A stretch of 30,935 nt of DNA. It comes from a virus. Taxonomy: Duplodnaviria; Heunggongvirae; Uroviricota; Caudoviricetes. Below the pieces are notes generated by a model. It saw only the letters and a list, made by a program, of their open reading frames with translations, made no database searches and was not told the origin of the DNA. The position numbers and the translations under genes are program-made. Of the stretch, positions 4,425 through 30,935 are shown piece by piece (within the stretch, counting starts at the first letter, position 1; every line of letters starts with the position of its first letter). The DNA lies in the IMG/VR virus record IMGVR_UViG_2690316316_000011, positions 1 to 30,935 of that record. One strand, written 5' to 3'.

Positions 4425-8312
<3,888 letters not shown>

Positions 8313-13550: not shown

Positions 13551-16286
13551 TTATTTATTATCGAGTAGTGATTGTACAAGTACTTTCAATGTTTCAATTT
13601 CGGCTGCAAGTTCATCATTCTTTATTTTTAGTGCCTTGATAGCAGCAAGACCATCTAACATCATGGGTGTTTCATCGAGATGATAGAGATCACCGACTTC
13701 TTTAACGTATTGTGGATCAATATTCATAATCTGCTGTGAAACCACACCACGTCTTGGTGTTTCATCCTCATCAGATTTAAAAGTGAAGTTCACAAAATCC
13801 ATTTGCGATATATTATTGAGTGCAATATTAAGATCTAATTTTTCACCAATATTCTTTGCTCTTTCATCGGAAACTGAAGAAGTTGTTATTTGTGCCCACG
13901 CTCCCCATGCGGCAACATTCGTTTGTATCCGAGAATAGATACGATTCGACGTATCATAAAAACGTTGTTGATACCATTGATTGGTTGTTCCCATTGCTGA
14001 AGTGCCGCCGACATTTAAACCCTGAGTTGCCTGTGTAAATAATGAGCCATAGATATTTCCGCTTAATGGACCATTTGACCACGTACCGCCGACAGCTTGC
14101 CACCCCTGATTAACAACATTCATATCAGTACCAGTAGCTGCTTGTGATGAGCCAGTAGGTGCAAGTCCTCCAGCAAGGCCAATGGGTGTGCCATAGCCCG
14201 AAATTGGCGGTAGATACGCCCAGCCCTGCCCAGCGACTGACCCAATCCTATCTCTGAAATAGAAAATAACCCCCTTACCGGCTTCCTGGCTATTCTCAAT
14301 TCTTACCCGGCGACCTACCACATCATCACCACCAGTAACATCTAAGTTGATTGCGGGCCAATCATCCCGCGATACCGTTAGTTGATTGCTGATCACTTGA
14401 GGTTGATTGAACGTATTTGATCTGTCCAATGTCGGTACTTCATGCCATTGCCATTTACCACTGTTCTGTGATGGCTGCACACCTCCAGCAAAGACACGAT
14501 TACCATCAGGCTGAACAAGCATTCCAGAATAAGACGGTGAACCATCATACTGTGATACATAACCAGCACCGCCGAATGATGAAGGGGAATCAATAGTTGC
14601 TGTAGTCGTTCGAATGAACCCTTTCGGTGCATCCTTCATATCGGCTACATGGCGAGGATTGATTCCAAGGCCAACTTCTGAAAGCGTATTGTCGATTGAA
14701 TAAATTTGCTGACCATTTAATGTCACAGAACTACCTACGGTAATAGATCCACTGAAGGTCTGCCCAGCACTCCATGTATTGGCAGTGGAAAGCAATGGTA
14801 CAGTACTTCCAGATGTACCAATGTTTGTTGTCGCTGCCGTGCCAAGTCCTAAAGCAGTACGTGCTGCCGCTGCCGTCGTAGCCCCTGTACCGCCACTCGT
14901 TAAGGGTAATGGCGTAGAGAGGGATAACGACGATAAAGCTGCCGTACCGCCAGTGATAGCGGCTGCGTTAGCATTCTGCGTTGCGAGGCTACCTAACCCA
15001 AGATTAGTACGTGCTGTTTCTGTATTCGCAATGTCCGATAGATTCGATGCGATTTTTAGCTGTGCGTCATTAGTAATAGAACCAAGACCAATATCATCTT
15101 TCGAAAGTACTATATCGGCAGAGAGCTCATGACCATTTATCACAATCGTTTTTGGTACAAAATCAGTATTAACATGAGTAGTTAGTAAATTAATTGAAGC
15201 ATTAACACCATCGATCGTGCTATCGACTTCACCCTTTGAGTAAACATCCAGATTGTTACGGGCTTCTTCAATATCAGTCAGATCAGAAAGGTTATGACTG
15301 ATCGCCAATTGTGCATCGTCAGTAACGGAACCAAGACCAACATCATCTTTCGAAAGTACTACATCATCGCTGAGTACATGCCCGTTAATCGTTCTGGTAT
15401 CCGGTACACTGCCTGTGTCTGAACTCGTTAGTACCACATCATCAGAAAGTACATGGCCATTAACGGTACGTTCTACAGGAACAGCACCAACATCGCCAGG
15501 AGTCAGAACAATGTCAGTACTCAGTTGCTTGCCGTTTACTGTTCGAGTGAGAGGAACATAGCGTGCGTCCATCTGTGTAGCGGTATAGATACGAGTCCAC
15601 GCTGTAGTGGCATTCTTCGCATAGATACTTAGCGTTCCCGATTTCGTCATAGCAAGGGAACTGACAGACGAACCATCAACCAGACCAATCCCCATCATGT
15701 CGGCACCAGCAGGATTACCCGCCTGTGTTGACGGTACTTTGATAAAGCTGTTACCCGTAGGGATAGCCGGTGCGTATTGAGGAACATCCGTTGTGTTTGA
15801 ACCTACACCATAATCTCCCTGATAGACCGGAAGTAACGCCGTAATCGCCTGACTACGGGCAACAACATCAGTTGGGGTAAATTCATAGGTTTTGGTTACT
15901 ACGCTATCCTTATCCCCGGAGAGTTGAGTACTGGTAATCGCCCCGTTCACCATTGCATAAGTTAACTGGCTGCCCTCTTCCTGATAGGCAATGGTTAGCT
16001 GGAACACATCCTGATTTTCTGCTGCTTCATCCAGAAATTGATGTGTAGAATCATCAGGGAGGTAATTAACAACAATATCAACTGGATTAGCGGATTTCTC
16101 TGCAAGTAATTTACTGTTATATGTGCTGTTGTAGGTGTCGTACTGATTCACCTCTGATTCAATCTCCAGTACTGGAAATTCTGCCACTTCATTAATCTGG
16201 ACGTTGCCAATTCCCTGTGGTGATCTGTTCCCCGTATCGGGGTTATATGATAATGAAAGTCCATTACCTGTAAAAATATCTGCCAT
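13551..16286 (-). CDS. tail fibre with N-terminal tube-like domain and C-terminal intramolecular chaperone (peptidase S74-like) domain
   Basis: 911-aa ORF; N-terminal domain paralogous to the 167-aa neighbour; central repeats (RTVNGKQLSTDIVLT / RTVNGHVLSDDVVLT / RTINGHVLSDDVVLS / KTIVINGHELSADIVLS; GLGSVTDDAQL / GLGSITNDAQL); C-terminal 106 aa begin SDERAKNIGEKLDLN, matching the auto-cleavage motif of endosialidase / T5 pb1-type chaperone domains. Confidence 0.7.
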   Translation of the reverse strand: MADIFTGNGLSLSYNPDTGNRSPQGIGNVQINEVAEFPVLEIESEVNQYDTYNSTYNSKLLAEKSANPVDIVVNYLPDDSTHQFLDEAAENQDVFQLTIAYQEEGSQLTYAMVNGAITSTQLSGDKDSVVTKTYEFTPTDVVARSQAITALLPVYQGDYGVGSNTTDVPQYAPAIPTGNSFIKVPSTQAGNPAGADMMGIGLVDGSSVSSLAMTKSGTLSIYAKNATTAWTRIYTATQMDARYVPLTRTVNGKQLSTDIVLTPGDVGAVPVERTVNGHVLSDDVVLTSSDTGSVPDTRTINGHVLSDDVVLSKDDVGLGSVTDDAQLAISHNLSDLTDIEEARNNLDVYSKGEVDSTIDGVNASINLLTTHVNTDFVPKTIVINGHELSADIVLSKDDIGLGSITNDAQLKIASNLSDIANTETARTNLGLGSLATQNANAAAITGGTAALSSLSLSTPLPLTSGGTGATTAAAARTALGLGTAATTNIGTSGSTVPLLSTANTWSAGQTFSGSITVGSSVTLNGQQIYSIDNTLSEVGLGINPRHVADMKDAPKGFIRTTTATIDSPSSFGGAGYVSQYDGSPSYSGMLVQPDGNRVFAGGVQPSQNSGKWQWHEVPTLDRSNTFNQPQVISNQLTVSRDDWPAINLDVTGGDDVVGRRVRIENSQEAGKGVIFYFRDRIGSVAGQGWAYLPPISGYGTPIGLAGGLAPTGSSQAATGTDMNVVNQGWQAVGGTWSNGPLSGNIYGSLFTQATQGLNVGGTSAMGTTNQWYQQRFYDTSNRIYSRIQTNVAAWGAWAQITTSSVSDERAKNIGEKLDLNIALNNISQMDFVNFTFKSDEDETPRRGVVSQQIMNIDPQYVKEVGDLYHLDETPMMLDGLAAIKALKIKNDELAAEIETLKVLVQSLLDNK

Positions 16287-23465: not shown

Positions 23466-24587
23466 TTGGTAAAAAATGTCTACTTCGACGAATCAGGGTT
23501 TACAGGTAATAACTTACTTTCAAAAGACCAGCCTTTTTTTAGTTATGCAGCAGTCATAACTGATGAAGAAGAAAGTAAACAATGTGTAGATTACATAATA
23601 CAAAAGTACTCGATTGCAGCCGGAGAGCTAAAAGGTAGCACTCTCGTTAATAGCAAGAGACTTCAACCAGCCGTAGATGAGATACTTAATCATTTCCGTG
23701 GTCGTATGCGTGTGGTTGTTAACGAAAAGAAATATGCCCTTTCAGGGAAATTCTTTGAATATATTTTCGAGCCAGTATTAGCTGCTAAAAGCTCAATATT
23801 TTACAACCTTAAATTTCACCTATTCATCTCTAATATAATGTATTTTTCTTTAATAGCTAAGGATGAGTATTCTGAACTATTGCATTCTCGATTTGAAGAT
23901 TTTTCACGAGGTAAAATATTGGTTAATAGTTTTATCGAACCAGTTATTGGTACTAAAAACTCTGAAATTATGATGGACATTCATGATTTCGCCAAACATA
24001 ACATTTCAATAATTGAAGAGGAATATGAAGGTCTTGAGGGAACTGGGTTTGATAAGTGGTTGTTAGATTTGACAACTACTTCTCTTTATAATCTCTTATG
24101 CGATATGAGTAGTAGGTTTGGTACATTGAGGGCTATATGTGACAGTTCAAAACCATTAATCACCCATCAGGAATCATTCAATGAGATGATAGGTAATGAT
24201 GAAATTGTGTTCGAGACCTACAATAATAAAAAAGTCCCGATCACATTCAAACTCTCTGAGCCGATAATCCTTTCTGATTCTAAAGTCACGCATGGTATTC
24301 AAATTGCTGATGTGATAGCTGCGGCCAGCATTTATGTGCTTAATAAGAAAAAATCCAAAGAAAGATATCACGCAAAATGGCTAACTCATTTCGAAGATGA
24401 GATTTTTTATTGGCAATGTTGTGTTGTTCCCACACCAGAAAACCTTGACCCTAAAAATGTCAACAGCTATTTGAATAGATATATATTGCAAGAAATTGCT
24501 GAACGAAGCAGAAAATCAATACCTGTTTTAGATGATATTGAAAAGGATATCATACGAATTTCCAGAACATTAGCAATGGTGCGTTGA
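23466..24587 (+). CDS. DUF3800-like protein (putative RNase H-like fold), unknown function
   Basis: 373-aa ORF beginning with a TTG codon 10 nt after an AAGGA Shine-Dalgarno; N-terminal VYFDESGFTG and C-terminal HGIQIADVIAAASIY match my recollection of the DUF3800 signature; divergent from the structural operon; AT-rich with one AGTACT copy. Confidence 0.5.
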   Translation: MVKNVYFDESGFTGNNLLSKDQPFFSYAAVITDEEESKQCVDYIIQKYSIAAGELKGSTLVNSKRLQPAVDEILNHFRGRMRVVVNEKKYALSGKFFEYIFEPVLAAKSSIFYNLKFHLFISNIMYFSLIAKDEYSELLHSRFEDFSRGKILVNSFIEPVIGTKNSEIMMDIHDFAKHNISIIEEEYEGLEGTGFDKWLLDLTTTSLYNLLCDMSSRFGTLRAICDSSKPLITHQESFNEMIGNDEIVFETYNNKKVPITFKLSEPIILSDSKVTHGIQIADVIAAASIYVLNKKKSKERYHAKWLTHFEDEIFYWQCCVVPTPENLDPKNVNSYLNRYILQEIAERSRKSIPVLDDIEKDIIRISRTLAMVR

Positions 24588-24592
24588 AGTAT

Positions 24593-24635
24593 ATATCCTC
24601 ATGCTGTGTTATTATCACCAGCGGCATGAGGATAT
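24593..24635. repeat. 12-bp perfect inverted repeat (hairpin or operator)
   Basis: ATATCCTCATGC-(19 nt)-GCATGAGGATAT between convergent DUF3800-like and lipoprotein genes; loop too long for a canonical terminator. Confidence 0.4.
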
Positions 24636-24683
24636 CATATGCAATTATTTTATCATGCCACATACACTCAATCACTTAATAAT

Positions 24684-24974
24684 TTAACTTTGATGATTTT
24701 TATTATCTATATTATTATATTTTTGAATTCTTTCCTCGCGTATTAGACATGTAGTACTGCCATCGTCCATCTGGTAGATTGGATTGTAGATGCGACCGCA
24801 ATCACTCTGGAATTGAGGCCGATAGTACTTCACCCCGTTACGTGTACCTGCGTCAAACAGTACTACAACAGCCTTGTTATCAACATTGCCGACAAAAGCG
24901 TTATCCATGAATGAGTGATGTACGTTACTACAGCCTGTTAGCAGTACTACCAACATGACGATGAGTATTTTCAT
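24684..24974 (-). CDS. small lipoprotein (candidate superinfection-exclusion protein)
   Basis: 96-aa ORF; signal peptide MKILIVMLVVLLTG followed by lipobox Cys (LTGC-SN); two further Cys in the mature part. Confidence 0.6.
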   Translation of the reverse strand: MKILIVMLVVLLTGCSNVHHSFMDNAFVGNVDNKAVVVLFDAGTRNGVKYYRPQFQSDCGRIYNPIYQMDDGSTTCLIREERIQKYNNIDNKNHQS

Positions 24975-24984
24975 TTCTATTTCC

Positions 24985-25515
24985 TTATAGTAATTTTTCG
25001 CAGTGCTCGAAGCGGATCGGCTTGTACATGCCCTGTACTGCCCAAACTCCGCATCCCTTAAGCAACTGGTGATGGTTGGTGTCCTGTACCTGTACGATCA
25101 CCTTGTCACAGCATCTATGGATGTTCTGTAGCAGTACGGGGAACATGACGCTCCCGATCAACTCATCACTGAACCTTCTATTTAGCCGTACTACCTCATA
25201 ATCGCCGTGCAGCAATTCGACCGCCGAAGTACCACGCCTCCCAACGTCATCGAGCCAGTGCAAGCCAAAGTACTTTATGTAGTCTGCCGACTCAGTGGGA
25301 AGTATTGGAGTGCTGACAGCACAGAACAGACCATTTGACCTGAACCACTCTTCTTTCCTACGTATGACGCTCATCTGTTCATGGTGTAGCTGCCGCTTCA
25401 GTACATCCCCAGCAATAACCCGGCAGCCATGTATTTCTATCTGTGGCTGGATTTCCACTCCGAGCAGTTGCCCATTGAGAGAAGTGGTCGGCACAGACCA
25501 GTACTGGATGTTCAT
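24985..25515 (-). CDS. hypothetical Cys/His-rich protein
   Basis: 176-aa ORF co-oriented with the lipoprotein gene; visibly GC-richer than surrounding DNA; no motif recognised. Confidence 0.35.
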   Translation of the reverse strand: MNIQYWSVPTTSLNGQLLGVEIQPQIEIHGCRVIAGDVLKRQLHHEQMSVIRRKEEWFRSNGLFCAVSTPILPTESADYIKYFGLHWLDDVGRRGTSAVELLHGDYEVVRLNRRFSDELIGSVMFPVLLQNIHRCCDKVIVQVQDTNHHQLLKGCGVWAVQGMYKPIRFEHCEKLL

Positions 25516-25568
25516 TTAATGACCTCATTTGACCGTAAGTCATTAATATTGATCATTTTTATAGATCA

Positions 25569-25585
25569 TTCAATGCATCATTGAA
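25569..25585. promoter_or_regulatory. palindromic operator-like site
   Basis: TTCAATG-cat-CATTGAA inverted repeat in the divergent intergenic region between 24985-25515 (-) and 25677-25985 (+). Confidence 0.3.
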
Positions 25586-25639
25586 CAGTTTTATCGATAG
25601 GTTGTGATTTACTGGATTTTTAAAGCCACATACCCAACA

Positions 25640-25655
25640 CTGTATATACATACAG
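25640..25655. promoter_or_regulatory. candidate LexA (SOS) box
   Basis: CTGTATATACATACAG fits the enterobacterial LexA consensus CTGT-N8-ACAG with AT-rich spacer; overlaps a TATATA -10-like hexamer, 22 nt upstream of the 25677 start codon. Confidence 0.5.
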
Positions 25656-25676
25656 CACAACTATGGAGAACATCAA

Positions 25677-25985
25677 ATGAGTAAGAATGGCTACGATCCA
25701 GCAATCATTCGAGGGGTTCAGACCTTCACACATTGCGAGCGTGAATTCAGGGTTTGCTACTACGGTTCAGTACTGGATAAGTTTGCATGGGGTGATCGTG
25801 TGTTCTTCCAGAATGGACAAGGGAAGTACTGGTTCGGTACAGTTCAACGTGATTGCTTCGACCTGATCATTGAGTACCCCATCGCTTCAGTACTGGAAGG
25901 GTTAACTTATCTGGTGAGGGAAGATGAAATTGCCAGGCTTCATGAAGATGGTTGGTTTTGTGGACAAGAAGAACTACCGTTTTGA
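25677..25985 (+). CDS. hypothetical protein, possibly SOS-regulated
   Basis: 102-aa ORF with GGAG Shine-Dalgarno 8 nt upstream; preceded by the LexA-box candidate; followed by an AGTACT-flanked inverted repeat. Confidence 0.4.
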   Translation: MSKNGYDPAIIRGVQTFTHCEREFRVCYYGSVLDKFAWGDRVFFQNGQGKYWFGTVQRDCFDLIIEYPIASVLEGLTYLVREDEIARLHEDGWFCGQEELPF

Positions 25986-26096
25986 GTACTACCCCCTCAC
26001 ACCAAACAAACCTACCCATTAGCAAGGGGGAGTACTTTCTCGTAGTATACAGAACGAATAAATTCTTTGTATACTGCCGTTTTATCCTAAAGCGAT

Positions 26097-26783
26097 TTGA
26101 TTATGGACGAGAATAAAAAAGAAGTTATTGAAATAAGATCAGAAGATAAGGACTTTTTTGCAGAATTTATTGATTGTGAAGGTCCAATTATCCAAGATTC
26201 AATTGATCATAAAAAAATCACCCTTGCACTTGATAAAGCCCATGACATAAGAAAGTTTGAAATAGATCTCTATTGGAAGCGTGCTACTTATTTCTTTGCT
26301 TTTTTTACGGTTGTTACTGCTGCATTCGGTTTTACATTCTCAAATTACCGCTATACCTCTCTATCCCCCGCAATTGCTATTATCGGGATGACTTTTTCAC
26401 AGTGTTTTTATCATGTTAATATTGGCAGTAAGTACTGGCAGGAAAACTGGGAGTTCATTATTGATAAAATTGAATATTATGTGACTGGCAATCTTTACAA
26501 AGTTAGTTTCTTTGAAGATCATAATACATTAAGACCATCAGTGTCTAAAATTAACATTTATCTTAGCTGCTTTATCAAATGGGTTTGGATTTGTTCTCTA
26601 TTCCTATCTATTTTTAGCATACTCTTTCCGCATCCTATTTACTCATTGGTCTATTCATTAGTTGCATTCAAGCTGTATAAGCATACAGAACAGCACTGCA
26701 AAAAAACATTCAGTGATGAGTTAACTAATGATAAAAAAATCATTAGACGATTCCATTTCCGAAATCCAACATACAAAAAATAG
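26097..26783 (+). CDS. polytopic membrane protein, unknown function
   Basis: 228-aa ORF; soluble N-terminal ~60 aa then two pairs of hydrophobic helices (YFFAFFTVVTAAFGFTF / AIAIIGMTFSQCFY; IYLSCFIKWVWICSLFLSIFSILF / IYSLVYSLVAF) and a basic C-terminus; AT-rich, one AGTACT copy. Confidence 0.4.
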   Translation: MIMDENKKEVIEIRSEDKDFFAEFIDCEGPIIQDSIDHKKITLALDKAHDIRKFEIDLYWKRATYFFAFFTVVTAAFGFTFSNYRYTSLSPAIAIIGMTFSQCFYHVNIGSKYWQENWEFIIDKIEYYVTGNLYKVSFFEDHNTLRPSVSKINIYLSCFIKWVWICSLFLSIFSILFPHPIYSLVYSLVAFKLYKHTEQHCKKTFSDELTNDKKIIRRFHFRNPTYKK

Positions 26784-26789
26784 TAAATG

Positions 26790-26806
26790 AGGGGCTATAT
26801 GCCCCT
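26790..26806. terminator. bidirectional intrinsic terminator
   Basis: AGGGGC-tatat-GCCCCT hairpin with flanking T-rich sequence between convergent genes 26097-26783 (+) and hcp (-). Confidence 0.6.
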
Positions 26807-26811
26807 TTCTA

Positions 26812-27297
26812 CTATGCTGTAGCTCGTTCATTCCACGCATCTGTATACTGGATATTACCGTCACAGTACTTCCATGTAATTCTTTCGTAGCGTAATTCTA
26901 CACGCTCCATATGATTACATTTTTCAACGGTCTTTGTATTGTACATTATCGGGGTTACGGCAACGACTTTGACGCCTTCAAGAAGCATATTGAAGTACTC
27001 TACTTCCTGGCCTGCATCATTAATCTTGTACCATTTAATTTCGACACTTTTAAGCGACTGGCCTGTAGCAACTGCTTTATAGAGATATGGCGTAGAGCTA
27101 TCAAATTCCTTTTCTAATACCATCGGTGCATGGATTCGAGTTCCAGTAATTTTACCAGTATTATTATCGGTAGGAATATGTAGACCATGACCGAAACCAA
27201 TAATTTCTACACTTCCCTCGCGATCCATTACATCGCATGACCCCTTAATTAATGCTCCACCATCATCTTTAAGCCATAAGTGTGCGGGGATTGCCAT
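26812..27297 (-). CDS. hcp: Hcp (type VI secretion system tube protein) homolog
   Basis: 161-aa ORF; MAIPAHLWLKDDGG N-terminus, IPTDNNTGKITGTRIHAP, PYLYKAVATGQSLKSVEIKWYKINDAGQEVEYF and RVELRYERITWKY blocks parallel enterobacterial and Vibrio Hcp sequences recalled from memory; AAGGAG Shine-Dalgarno 7 nt upstream. Confidence 0.8.
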   Translation of the reverse strand: MAIPAHLWLKDDGGALIKGSCDVMDREGSVEIIGFGHGLHIPTDNNTGKITGTRIHAPMVLEKEFDSSTPYLYKAVATGQSLKSVEIKWYKINDAGQEVEYFNMLLEGVKVVAVTPIMYNTKTVEKCNHMERVELRYERITWKYCDGNIQYTDAWNERATA

Positions 27298-27309
27298 TGA
27301 AAACTCCTT

Positions 27310-27666
27310 TTAATCGTAAAGCCAGCGACCAGCCTTAGCTGATTCGACAAGCATTTTGAGTGTTAATGGTTGTGGTTCAATCCATTCCCATTTATTATCT
27401 TTTGATCGTAAAAAATTCAATGGAAGTATTACTTCTTCATTGGGCCAGTACTTTCCAAATGTGAAGTTTTTCCGATCAACATTGAACTTCGTAAAGTAAT
27501 CATCAAGTATCTCTATCGCATCTTCATCTGCCCAAGGATACTTTCCTGTTGATAGGCTTGTTTCCAGCGTCAATGATGGCTTCCTGAAAAATGGAAAAAC
27601 ACGCCCATTCCAATTGTCGTTATACCAATTCATGACCTGCTGCTCTATGCTATCTGAATCGTTCAT
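27310..27666 (-). CDS. small soluble Trp-rich protein, unknown (operon partner of hcp)
   Basis: 118-aa ORF 12 nt upstream of hcp and 7 nt downstream of the 148-aa ORF. Confidence 0.4.
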   Translation of the reverse strand: MNDSDSIEQQVMNWYNDNWNGRVFPFFRKPSLTLETSLSTGKYPWADEDAIEILDDYFTKFNVDRKNFTFGKYWPNEEVILPLNFLRSKDNKWEWIEPQPLTLKMLVESAKAGRWLYD

Positions 27667-27673
27667 TCAGTAC

Positions 27674-28120
27674 CTACCATAGACGATCTGAAGGATGGGC
27701 GATTGTATTGTACTTATTGACAGCTTTGAAACTGATTATAGAAACGTCTGCTGCGAGTATAACCCAACCAACAAGAGGAATAGTCCTGCCAACGAATGTA
27801 CCTAATCGCTGTGTCATAACTCGTTTGGCATTAGGTGGAAATCCAATCCAAGTGGGCATTCGTACTGGCATCATTCGCCCTCTGAATAATTTTCTGGAAT
27901 AGATTGATGCCACGGATGTTCCGGGGGTTGCCCCTGCGAGTTTACCTGCTACTGTGACACTATTCGAACCAAGATAGATCCCTGCTACTGCGGCTATGTC
28001 TGAGATACCAAAGTGATCTAATGTTTCATCAACCATGATCCAGAAGAATAGCTCCCCTGCACTCAGATTGGACGAACCGTCATAGAAGTATGTTCCGTTA
28101 AGTTCTTCTACTGTATCCAT
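27674..28120 (-). CDS. hydrophobic glycine-zipper-like protein, unknown (first gene of hcp operon)
   Basis: 148-aa ORF with Gly/Ala-rich hydrophobic stretches (ISDIAAVAGIYLGSNSVTVAGKLAGATPG; GRTIPLVGWVILAADVSIISF). Confidence 0.4.
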   Translation of the reverse strand: MDTVEELNGTYFYDGSSNLSAGELFFWIMVDETLDHFGISDIAAVAGIYLGSNSVTVAGKLAGATPGTSVASIYSRKLFRGRMMPVRMPTWIGFPPNAKRVMTQRLGTFVGRTIPLVGWVILAADVSIISFKAVNKYNTIAHPSDRLW

Positions 28121-28267
28121 CAGTAATCCCTACTTTTGTGTAGAATTCCCCATAATACTATCAAGTTGGACATAGATGGGAAATTAAACCCCATGAAATT
28201 TCTGATTTAAGTTTAGCGGTACTTAATCCTAAGTTAAGTTGTGATAATGATCACTCTCAACCAACAG

Positions 28268-28296
28268 TTACTAATTCATCCATAAAATGGTAGAAT
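28268..28296 (+). promoter_or_regulatory. candidate sigma70-type promoter
   Basis: TTACTA (-35) - 17 nt - TAGAAT (-10), ~35 nt upstream of the 28331 start codon. Confidence 0.35.
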
Positions 28297-28330
28297 GCCC
28301 TTAGAAATCCTTAATTGAAAGTTTAAACAA

Positions 28331-29044
28331 ATGAAATTTAAAAAATATAACAATGCTTTGATTTGCACTGTTCTTGTACTCTTATGGGCAGCAATCTTGG
28401 CACTGGTTAAAGTTTTATTTTCTGGGAATAAAGATTTTGAATGGGGTAGTGTCTCTGATTGGGCATCCACATTTTGCAATGCTATAATGGCTGGAGCTGC
28501 ATTATATGCAGCTATTAATGCAAAAAATTGGTTATCAGAGAAAACACGAACATTAGGTTTGGAAAAAGCCGAATCTATACTTAATGAAATCGATACTTTT
28601 TCTTCCGCCCATAGTTCTTATATAGATCGTTTAGCTGAAGCTGAAATCTACTATCGGTCTAATATTTTTGAAAATCAAGTAGACAGGAATATAGTAATAA
28701 ATTCACTTGATGAATTACGAGTGTTAATTGAAAACAACAAACTGAGATTGCAGGATACGCATTCAAAATTTTCATCATTAAAACGTTGGGATGTCACAAT
28801 TTTAAAGGAAGAGGAAATTTATCAGCTACTTGATGTTTATCAAAGAACAATTATGTCTTTATCGAATGCGACTTTTAATCTAAGAAATGCATTATCGGAA
28901 TTCATTAATGATGAAAGGTTTTTTGCACTCTTTGGCCATCATTTCAAAGAATATTATGCAGAGGCTCTTTCGTCCTATCATCAGGGGACATGTATCCATG
29001 ATAAAATTAGGAAATATAAATTCCGAGAACTTTTTGATGTATAG
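28331..29044 (+). CDS. N-terminally membrane-anchored helical protein, unknown function
   Basis: 237-aa ORF; two N-terminal hydrophobic helices (ALICTVLVLLWAAILALVKVLF; FCNAIMAGAALYAAINA) then a charged helical domain; AT-rich with no AGTACT copies. Confidence 0.4.
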   Translation: MKFKKYNNALICTVLVLLWAAILALVKVLFSGNKDFEWGSVSDWASTFCNAIMAGAALYAAINAKNWLSEKTRTLGLEKAESILNEIDTFSSAHSSYIDRLAEAEIYYRSNIFENQVDRNIVINSLDELRVLIENNKLRLQDTHSKFSSLKRWDVTILKEEEIYQLLDVYQRTIMSLSNATFNLRNALSEFINDERFFALFGHHFKEYYAEALSSYHQGTCIHDKIRKYKFRELFDV

Positions 29045-29681
29045 TTTATCGTAGTGCATAGGAATTATGTCGATACCGCATATGGTAACAGTTTCTGATA
29101 AACTCGGGCTTCTCATCTGAGTCTTTCATTAAGCACCGTTACATTAGTTATACTGTCATAACTCACTTAAGCAATAACATCTGTTAGCCGGAGGTTGTGC
29201 GTGCGGCGGCGGGACTGGCGGGTTACTAACTAATGCCTTGATGATAGTACTGATTTAGTAGTTTACCACAGTAAGGGCTTCAACAGCCCGATAACCCCAA
29301 CAAGGGAGTTTACGACCGCGTAGGTACTCACGAAGACTTTAGGCCACAGGCCGACCCAAAAACATTTTGAGTACTTCATTTGTCAGTACTGTTACCTGTC
29401 TGAGCGAGAGCGAGTAAGGGCTTTGGCGTTCTTTCGAGTACAGCGAGAAAAACGCAAAGTTACTAACCAATACTACGAGGAGTTCACGACGAGTAGTATT
29501 CGTGACGCAAGTCACAATTTCATTGAATACTGATAGAGAAAGAAATACATGGAATGAAATGGAATGGATTTCGTATCTCTATACTTAGTTGCCGTATTGA
29601 TGGTAAAACGCAGGTTTCAGGGGCTTTTTTTCCCGTATTACGGCATGGATGTATGCCGTTATATGCCGCAATAAGGCACAA

Positions 29682-30208: not shown

Positions 30209-30709
30209 TTATTGTGATTTGTGTAATAGTACCGCACTAAGTTTCGGATAAGATTTATACTTCTGCGATAGCTTATAGATGTATGACTTACGTCCAGCAA
30301 CATAAGCTGCATGAGCTTCTTCTACCGTTTGGTATGTTCCAAATTTATGTACTTTCTTATCAAATGTAGCTTGTGCTTGATAGCCCTTATGATTAACGAC
30401 TACACCAGTTGATAAAGATGTTGGTACTTCCCGAAATAATTGATTGATTTCTCTCGGTACAAAGATACAGTTACTTGGGCTGTACTCACTCCCTCCTAAT
30501 ATGTCTTTATCCAAGTGCCAATCATCAACGACATTATCAATATACCAGTAATAAAAGTTACTAAAGAGATACCAATCATCGCAGATAGTAACAGTACTGT
30601 AATTGATGTTATTACGTACTCTTGAGTGAAAATTATTCCATACTAGTTGTGCTTCTTTTATACGTGGTAGTGCCTGACCTTTTAGGTCATTTCTTTTTTC
30701 CTTTTCCAT
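30209..30709 (-). CDS. HNH homing endonuclease with C-terminal AP2-like DNA-binding domain
   Basis: 166-aa ORF; HNH-like H..D......N....N segment (WHLDKDILGGSEYSPSNCIFVPREINQ) and AP2-like C-terminus (GVVVNHKGYQAQATFDKKVHKFGTYQTVEEAHAAYVAGRK). Confidence 0.55.
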   Translation of the reverse strand: MEKEKRNDLKGQALPRIKEAQLVWNNFHSRVRNNINYSTVTICDDWYLFSNFYYWYIDNVVDDWHLDKDILGGSEYSPSNCIFVPREINQLFREVPTSLSTGVVVNHKGYQAQATFDKKVHKFGTYQTVEEAHAAYVAGRKSYIYKLSQKYKSYPKLSAVLLHKSQ

Positions 30710-30785
30710 TTTTCATCCTTGAAAATAAGTACTTCACCCTGAAGTACTGCCAGTACTTTTCTAAAGTGAAAGTACCAAACCCTTA

Positions 30786-30935
30786 CTTGCTACCTAAAAT
30801 CGCATACTGATGTATCAGATACTGAATGGCTGAACTAATCGTAGTAGCCTTACCACATTCTATAAGTGATTTTAGTATTTCTTCTTGTGTAGGATTTAAT
30901 CTCACTCCAACACTAATCGTTTTCTTTTCTTTCAT
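30786..30935 (-). CDS. small DNA-binding protein (ribbon-helix-helix or HTH-like)
   Basis: 49-aa ORF read by hand from the reverse complement (MKEKKTISVGVRLNPTQEEILKSLIECGKATTISSAIQYLIHQYAILGSK); absent from the supplied track because it is below 60 aa. Begins at the window edge. Confidence 0.35.

Follow-up and report, generated by a model that had tools for sequence, protein, structure and literature searches.

Islands in which an orphan hcp gene is accompanied by a small cargo toxin and a downstream immunity gene have been described in Pantoea and Erwinia (PMC3235180, PMC9796082), and Ssp6-like genes are found beside an orphan hcp in Klebsiella (PMC6889166). The Ssp6 family itself consists of small membrane-depolarising effectors with a downstream immunity gene, a variable genomic context and an occasional orphan Hcp (PMC6889166). 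Here we present a cassette of this kind from a viral DNA stretch of 30,935 nt (record IMGVR_UViG_2690316316_000011, positions 1-30,935; this whole stretch is called the window below), in which three minus-strand genes encode a 148-aa putative toxin of the STM2901 family (DUF8209), a 118-aa DUF1493 protein and a 161-aa Hcp, the tube and carrier protein of type VI secretion systems (T6SS). Judged by analogy, the Ssp6 family is the closest functional parallel to this cassette. Like the known orphan hcp islands, it belongs to a set of loci found outside the core T6SS cluster, whose contexts vary and were acquired horizontally; it differs from them in its order, toxin-immunity-hcp, and in being placed inside a temperate phage, while DUF8209/STM2901 and DUF1493 are not among the families described in the papers that we searched. 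Although the island type is already known, the DUF8209-DUF1493 toxin-immunity family is without experimental characterisation, and no functional studies of DUF1493, STM2901, DUF8209, PF26636 or PF07377 were found in the searchable literature. What is unusual in the window cassette is its gene order, its cytoplasmic immunity protein with the fold of an acyl carrier protein (ACP) and its temperate-phage carrier. The explanation that we favour, and regard as reasonably likely, is that of an orphan T6SS 'ammunition' cassette, a moron of a temperate siphovirus-like Escherichia coli prophage made up of a toxin, its immunity protein and a dedicated Hcp, with which the phage probably arms its host against neighbouring bacteria and protects it from them.

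The putative toxin, DUF1493 and hcp genes

The features of the cassette in the window are the following, with the source of each in brackets.

27674 to 28120, minus strand: putative toxin gene, 148 aa, STM2901 family / DUF8209 (PF26636) (profile matches)
27310 to 27666, minus strand: putative immunity gene, 118 aa, DUF1493 (profile match)
26812 to 27297, minus strand: hcp, 161 aa, T6SS tube and carrier protein (profile matches)
27304 to 27309, minus strand: AAGGAG ribosome-binding site, 6 nt 5' of the hcp start codon (sequence reading)
26780 to 26806, minus strand: intrinsic-terminator-like hairpin AGGGGCATATAGCCCCT with a T-rich tail, between hcp and the convergent RipA/8xMP gene (consensus scan, sequence)
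28121 to 28330, no strand: divergent intergenic region of 210 bp, 5' of the toxin gene (sequence)

Transcribed in the order toxin, DUF1493, hcp, the three genes are separated by gaps of 7 and 12 nt, and since all three open reading frames (ORFs) match curated families far above cut-off, none of them is a chance ORF. The first-pass annotation, made from the letters of the window, had described a tight minus-strand operon of three genes that ends at a terminator. Both points hold, as the ORF positions and gaps are exact, AAGGAG precedes hcp, and a G+C-rich hairpin (26806-26790) lies 3' of the hcp stop and is followed by the T-rich tail. The promoter of the cassette is presumably located in the 210-bp region 5' of the toxin gene, where a consensus scan found no strong or convincing sigma-70 consensus.

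The 161-aa protein had been assigned to the Hcp family by its signature, and profile searches agree, with matches to Pfam T6SS_HCP (E-value = 1.7e-31, 109.6 bits, cut-off 23.5) and, over its full length (residues 1-158), to TIGR03344 TssD (E-value = 1.9e-44, 151.5 bits, cut-off 58.9). It also aligns end to end (E-value = 2.4e-72) with the solved hexameric Hcp of PDB 4HKH, which we take to be Hcp1 of the Sci-1 system of enteroaggregative E. coli (EAEC). With the Hcp whose gene stands between tagL and clpV in the complete T6SS cluster of E. coli E100341 (tssBCKL-tagL-hcp-clpV-vgrG-tle1-tli1) it shares 71% identity, and with the core-cluster Hcp of CFT073 it shares 64%; these core-cluster proteins are near-identical to it in length, the difference being a loop two residues shorter. 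By homology it reads as a canonical tube-type Hcp and not as a phage tail-tube protein; the matches predict the Hcp beta-barrel fold, and the protein would be expected to assemble into a hexameric ring. A tblastn search of phage records returned only matches of 25-29% identity, one of them to a mis-filed Salmonella chromosome. A separate observation concerns the Enterobacter hormaechei plasmid NZ_CP058189.1 (4402-5492), where an orphan Hcp 75% identical to that of the window has for neighbours a stand-alone protein of 130 aa with a 'polymorphic toxin type 44 domain', some small hypothetical genes and a CI/integrase pair of P2-like type. This is a further module of Hcp and small toxin on a mobile element, and it suggests that small cargo toxins are frequent companions of Hcps of this class.

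The 148-aa protein matches NCBIfam NF045926 (STM2901 family; E-value = 3e-54, 182.8 bits, cut-off 110) and PHROG 21993 (E-value = 2e-60), and PF26636 (DUF8209) is the precomputed annotation of its homologues. A profile search over 1.84 billion representative proteins led to 509 relatives. Among the best 150 of these, 38 are 200-787 aa long, and in all 38 the domain is found at the extreme C-terminus. RHS repeats are present in two of the longer homologues (P0331, P0386), a strict pattern for the end motif of the Rhs/YD core (…YDPxxGRF…NNPxxxxDPxG…) stands just before the domain in 14, and Rhs-end-like motifs, including those read by eye, occur in roughly 20 of the 38. Because Rhs/YD polymorphic toxins carry the domain at their very C-terminal end, the 148-aa protein appears to be essentially a bare toxin domain, common to RHS-repeat proteins as would be expected of a polymorphic toxin. 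This agrees with its earlier proposal as a small effector, its toxicity being predicted. No fusions of the domain to Hcp, PAAR or VgrG were seen, and a third homology search, which started from an alignment of C-terminal domains of fused proteins, yielded chiefly stand-alone members from Proteobacteria and revealed no further architecture.

Hydropathy analysis of the same protein gives one clear hydrophobic helix (113-134), which contains the invariant D125 and has the invariant R112 at its edge, as well as a moderately hydrophobic stretch (39-57) and a conserved polar loop, GKxAGATPGTSxAS. It had been called hydrophobic and glycine-zipper-like. The hydrophobic helix and one GxxxGxxxG motif are indeed present; the zipper was rejected, since this only copy of the motif (59-67) lies in the polar loop and the helix is without one. 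We suppose that the protein may insert into membranes and depolarise them.

The 118-aa protein matches DUF1493 (PF07377; E-value = 3.3e-24, above cut-off); it is acidic and soluble, carries neither a signal peptide nor a hydrophobic segment and has an ACP-like helical fold. We compared 80 genomic loci from different species, 79 of them with a called toxin gene, and in 75 of the 79 a DUF1493 gene lies directly 3' of the toxin gene, often overlapping the toxin stop; the same holds for 60 of 64 viral contigs from IMG/VR. DUF1493 is also kept 3' of longer toxin forms in two metagenomic loci, an orphan cassette of the Rhs C-terminal type, located downstream of an LRR/DUF6443 protein of 2,311 aa (L089), and a fused form of 432 aa (L090). 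Orphan or tandem DUF1493 genes, or a toxin fragment displaced with its own DUF1493, were found in four loci (L013, L026, L028, L066) and resemble the effector-replacement footprints of T6SS and Rhs islands (PMC9796082). Among distant loci, DUF1493 is the fastest-diverging of the three proteins, with a mean identity of 34% vs 50% for the toxin and 60% for Hcp. The pairing, the orphan copies and the fastest divergence are traits of immunity proteins, and the 118-aa protein is likely the immunity protein of the toxin, a role that the first-pass annotation had offered as one possibility. Beside this, a wider set of loci (L065, L056 and L072 in addition to those just named) includes cassettes that are in tandem or duplicated, DUF1493 orphans and a displaced fragment of the toxin, which suggests an ongoing recombinational turnover of the toxin-immunity module.

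Distribution of the cassette and its prophage

In the window and in 34 of the 79 genomic loci, spread over many Enterobacterales genera, hcp lies 3' of DUF1493 on the same strand, so that the toxin gene stands in an operon with hcp as in Hcp-dependent effectors; two further loci have hcp adjacent on the opposite strand. The flanks are otherwise unrelated, comprising housekeeping genes, P2-like prophage genes, an integrase or defence-like genes, and the mobile unit is therefore the toxin-immunity pair, with or without Hcp. Among the 64 viral contigs with the pair, 47 are P2-like and carry it at two sites, between gpA and the portal gene and between the tail-fibre-assembly and sheath genes, and Erwinia phage EtG bears it at the same P2 moron position. 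A different allele of the pair, whose toxin is 37% identical to that of the window, is located at 5001-5785 of one E. coli locus (L003), between icd and rluE and next to a prophage integration site; it has no Hcp, and 375 of 5,426 complete E. coli genomes carry it at a conservation of at least 99%.

The window represents a siphovirus-type prophage, with TerS, TerL, portal, protease-capsid fusion, head-tail joining protein, tape measure and J-like tip encoded on the minus strand and the lysis genes at its left end. Where E. coli assemblies have genes for precisely these proteins (L004, L091), the prophage measures about 37 kb and is established between mipA (yeaF) and yeaG, with a 646-aa large serine recombinase at its yeaG end. 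The cassette lies inside it, with phage genes on both sides, as part of an accessory island that separates TerS from the recombinase end; this bears out the siphovirus accessory-region setting noted at first. Identical cassette proteins occur in dozens of assemblies, among them GCA_029540165.1, GCA_054490245.1 and GCA_001285325.1. A related, truncated prophage riddled with insertion sequences (IS) is found in ybhA of E. coli G3/10, assembly GCF_014295275.1, where the order TerS-DUF3800-RipA-Hcp-DUF1493-toxin is the same and the cassette is 95.6% identical to that of the window; this is the single such case among the 5,426 complete E. coli genomes. Neither the cassette nor the window's first 25 kb had a megablast match among 50,697 phage records, and no deposited phage resembles the prophage in its DNA.

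The palindrome AGTACT occurs 89 times in the window vs 7.5 +/- 2.5 expected, an approximately 12-fold enrichment, and could be a modification, binding or anti-restriction signal. Its sites follow one another at even distances, with about 5-7 in every 2 kb, and the longest gap without a site is 27453-29245. Its density is 2.5-2.9 per kb in two related viral contigs (L095, L136) vs 0.0-0.3 per kb in bacterial loci. The cassette, described earlier as intermediate in this respect, does have three sites in 1.3 kb, the window as a whole averaging 2.9 per kb. In phage, each copy of the cassette has three or four sites, while chromosomal homologues, with toxins 70-90% identical to that of the window, have none (one in L011), a difference that supports a long residence in phage. 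The first-pass annotation had named an identical module in the host chromosome, flanking this position, as the finding that would argue for host DNA and against phage cargo. An origin as host DNA is excluded by the phage genes on both sides, the two chromosomal insertion sites and an AGTACT signature without chromosomal counterpart, and the module stands as cargo of the phage.

Further genes around the cassette and in the rest of the accessory island (23466-26783), which holds other morons, are listed below.

28331 to 29044, plus strand: divergent gene for a 237-aa predicted membrane protein, outside the operon (ORF list, profile scan)
26097 to 26783, plus strand: convergent gene for an 8xMP or 'RipA family octameric membrane protein' (Pfam PF24838, E-value = 6.3e-27; G3/10 annotation)
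23466 to 24587: DUF3800 protein, accessory island
24684 to 24974: Cor-like 96-aa protein, accessory island
24985 to 25515: 176-aa protein with a weakly EAL/cyclic-di-GMP phosphodiesterase-like C-terminus, accessory island

Homologues of the 237-aa membrane protein adjoin the toxin-immunity pair in both related viral contigs (L095, L136). The 8xMP/RipA gene is near the cassette in just 4 of 86 loci; it is an independent moron that accompanies the cassette only in its closest relatives, and a literature search on RipA/8xMP gave unspecific results. Neither a recognisable replication module nor a CI/Cro-type switch was seen in the prophage of about 37 kb (the window with its flanks in L004 and L091), and the lone candidate regulator, judged by eye, is a small ribbon-helix-helix-like ORF at 30783-30935. 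A 911-aa ORF (13551-16286, minus strand) matches the major tail protein family phrog_158 with its N-terminal 150 aa; its remainder resembles a tail fibre and has a Peptidase_S74 intramolecular chaperone domain at the end, which would make it an unusually long tail-tube decoration or fusion. Two possible homing endonucleases were also identified, a SegE-like GIY-YIG endonuclease at 2515-2967 and an HNH endonuclease at 30209-30709, both on the minus strand.

Possible functions of the cassette

If the cassette works as we favour, DUF1493 would bind the toxin in the cytoplasm of a lysogen with a compatible T6SS and keep it harmless, perhaps soluble. Hcp proteins act as receptor and chaperone for their cargo, and the 16-kDa toxin would be loaded into the lumen of the phage-encoded Hcp hexamer; its 148 aa lie within the accepted size for lumen cargo, a limit reportedly treated by Silverman et al. 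in 2013. The phage Hcp hexamer would then co-polymerise with the host tube and be fired into neighbouring cells, where the toxin would insert in the inner membrane and dissipate the membrane potential. Lysogens and their kin would survive because they make DUF1493, and the phage would gain because its host outcompetes non-lysogens. The reading of the locus as an Hcp-effector-immunity module, advanced in the first-pass annotation, finds support in the canonical Hcp, the toxin domain shared with Rhs proteins, the DUF1493 partner and the prophage location. Together with the operon anatomy, the recurrence of the domain at Rhs/YD C-termini, the constancy of the toxin-DUF1493 pairing and the frequent link to Hcp, these are established by the analysis, and from them we infer binding, neutralisation, secretion, target and benefit to the phage.

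Several observations weigh against this explanation. The gene order is not the usual hcp-toxin-immunity. No VgrG, PAAR, TssB/C or other T6SS core genes were found within 10 kb at the 80 genomic loci, the large ORFs examined next to the cassette being all housekeeping, phage or defence-like. Membrane-targeting T6SS toxins do not usually have an immunity protein that is soluble and cytoplasmic, and the AlphaFold2 model of the toxin, of moderate confidence (pLDDT 78.6), has no specific or informative PDB neighbour, which makes pore formation a guess. Two Rhs fusions (L087, L088) are followed by ORFs that are not recognisably DUF1493: hhalign of those downstream of L087 against the DUF1493 profile was not significant (probabilities of 0.2% and 2.6%), and the one behind L088 has no Pfam hit on record. 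By blastn, no second hcp of the window's class was detectable in G3/10. The pair is a common moron among phages but almost always Hcp-less, as an operonic Hcp was found in none of the 62 IMG/VR contigs with a called toxin gene (a convergent one in two), and the two contigs most like the window phage (L095, L136) are without any Hcp. Such mostly Hcp-less phage pairs suggest that the host's own Hcp may normally carry the toxin, or that in phages the pair may have a role independent of the T6SS, as a toxin-antitoxin, abortive-infection or exclusion system.

It is the latter role that gives the likeliest alternative, namely that the pair is primarily a prophage toxin-antitoxin, abortive-infection or superinfection-exclusion module. 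A labile or titratable antitoxin would keep a membrane-depolarising toxin in check until another phage infects, with Hcp as an accidental or secondary passenger. The absence of Hcp from nearly all phage-borne copies fits this well, as does the position of the pair at both classical P2 moron and defence hot spots in the 47 P2-like contigs; the window island has genes of an exclusion or defence flavour (Cor-like, DUF3800, 8xMP), and some chromosomal copies adjoin defence-like genes (GAP1-N1, a helicase-PLD protein). It leaves the operonic Hcp of 34 of the 79 chromosomal loci without a role, however, and the Rhs fusions speak of a toxin that is exported elsewhere, while arrays of orphan immunity genes are typical of interbacterial toxin systems and none of the three proteins matched PADLOC-DB v2 at E <= 0.1; we consider this module rather unlikely. 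In this host the cassette might otherwise be mainly defensive, with DUF1493 directed against the same toxin of competitors, or a silent remnant in a lysogen without a compatible T6SS. Orphan DUF1493 genes exist, the prophage of G3/10, a strain with no second hcp of this class by blastn, is IS-riddled and truncated, and silent T6SS effector-immunity homologues are documented (SMDB11_0810/0809; PMC6889166). On the other hand, none of the three ORFs is disrupted, they are tightly coupled and show 95.6% conservation between prophages at different sites, their exact proteins recur in dozens of assemblies, and immunity alone would not need an intact toxin gene and hcp, all of which renders a defensive or inert cassette improbable.

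An action on eukaryotic hosts or a role linked to virulence is suggested by the namesake pair STM2901/STM2902 (pigA/pigB), which adjoins invH at the edge of pathogenicity island 1 of Salmonella (SPI-1). Some pig genes are reported as HilC-regulated (PMC7232297, PMC1781944), and one Typhimurium isolate has an annotated DUF1493 gene in its SPI-1 region. We hold this to be very improbable, as the pig genes seem not to contribute to virulence according to a review (PMC7232297), while the constant cognate partner, the orphan partners and the Rhs C-terminal architecture point to self-protection against an antibacterial toxin, and the family is frequent both in Burkholderia and in Enterobacterales that are environmental or associated with plants and insects. 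The remaining alternative is that the phage itself uses Hcp, as a virion or tail part or as a decoy against the host T6SS or the tail-tube assembly of rival phages. Hcp and phage tail-tube proteins have a common fold, and hcp lies on the strand of the structural genes. We can give this hardly any credence: the identity of 71% is to a T6SS structural Hcp and not to a phage tube protein, and the Hcp-containing cassette is mostly chromosomal and non-phage. Hcp as a part of the virion was rejected, since a major tail protein of the phage's own is encoded by ORF 13551-16286 (phrog_158) and the related phages L095 and L136 lack Hcp.

A broader and speculative view, to which we would allow only a small chance, is that the DUF8209-DUF1493 pair, among the commonest cargo modules of temperate Enterobacterales phages (at both P2 hot spots and in a siphovirus lineage), has a phage-centred function. 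It may be an interbacterial toxin turned into a switch for abortive infection or exclusion. Alternatively, as this phage would exemplify, it may serve the lysogenic conversion of the T6SS, the phage Hcp joining the host machine to deliver the phage toxin, which would kill non-lysogens so that the prophage spreads. By analogy with the way in which ACP holds an acyl chain, the ACP-fold immunity protein could possibly sequester the hydrophobic helix of the toxin. Should the ammunition cassette that we favour prove true, a temperate phage would hand its host a ready T6SS round of carrier, toxin and antidote, linking lysogenic conversion to contact-dependent bacterial warfare. A function would thereby be assigned to the widespread STM2901/DUF8209 and DUF1493 pair, whose reach extends over the 375 complete E. 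coli genomes with the other allele, dozens of P2-like prophages and the pigA/pigB edge of SPI-1 in Salmonella. Cytoplasmic immunity of the ACP fold against a membrane-type toxin would also be a new toxin-immunity interface or mechanism.

Relation to described systems

With Ssp6-Sip6 of Serratia and Tse4-Tsi4 of Pseudomonas, the window cassette shares a small non-enzymatic effector with predicted membrane activity, an immunity gene directly downstream and a scattered context. The likeness of the window toxin to Ssp6 and Tse4 is drawn from these features, and pore formation by the STM2901 family would follow from it by analogy. Sip6 is a membrane protein with two transmembrane segments, whereas DUF1493 is soluble, acidic and of the ACP fold, and thus not a small transmembrane immunity protein. 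The Rhs/YD modules of a C-terminal toxin and its immunity protein have the same toxin domain after the Rhs core end motif, with DUF1493 downstream (L089, L090) and with orphan or displaced copies. They differ from the window protein, which is a bare domain with about eight extra N-terminal residues and no Rhs, PAAR or VgrG carrier; the adjacent Hcp presumably replaces such a carrier. A paper in JBC from 2024 on a 'prophage-encoded fitness factor' was considered as a precedent and set aside, because it concerns a MuF-fused toxin and Hcp2 served only as a test substrate.

The pigA-pigB genes (STM2901-STM2902), at the mutS-proximal edge of Salmonella SPI-1, belong to the same family, and a DUF1493 gene is annotated in the region. 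From the gene order given in the papers, STM2901 would correspond to pigA and STM2902 to the DUF1493 gene. Unlike the window cassette they are chromosomal and have no adjacent Hcp, and the papers describe their function as unknown (PMC7232297, PMC1781944). Compared with EAEC Sci-1 Hcp1 (4HKH) and the core Hcps of E100341 and CFT073, the hcp of the window lies in a phage accessory island and not between tagL and clpV. The gpA|portal and tail-fibre-assembly|sheath sites are presumably the tin/old and Z/fun positions of P2, and such P2-like hot spots are said to be hot spots of anti-phage defence, as reportedly described by Rousset et al. in 2022. Like the morons of these hot spots, the Hcp-less pair occupies these positions in the 47 viral contigs and in Erwinia phage EtG. 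It differs from them in that it matches no PADLOC family and that the window copy resides in a siphovirus-type phage and is linked to Hcp.

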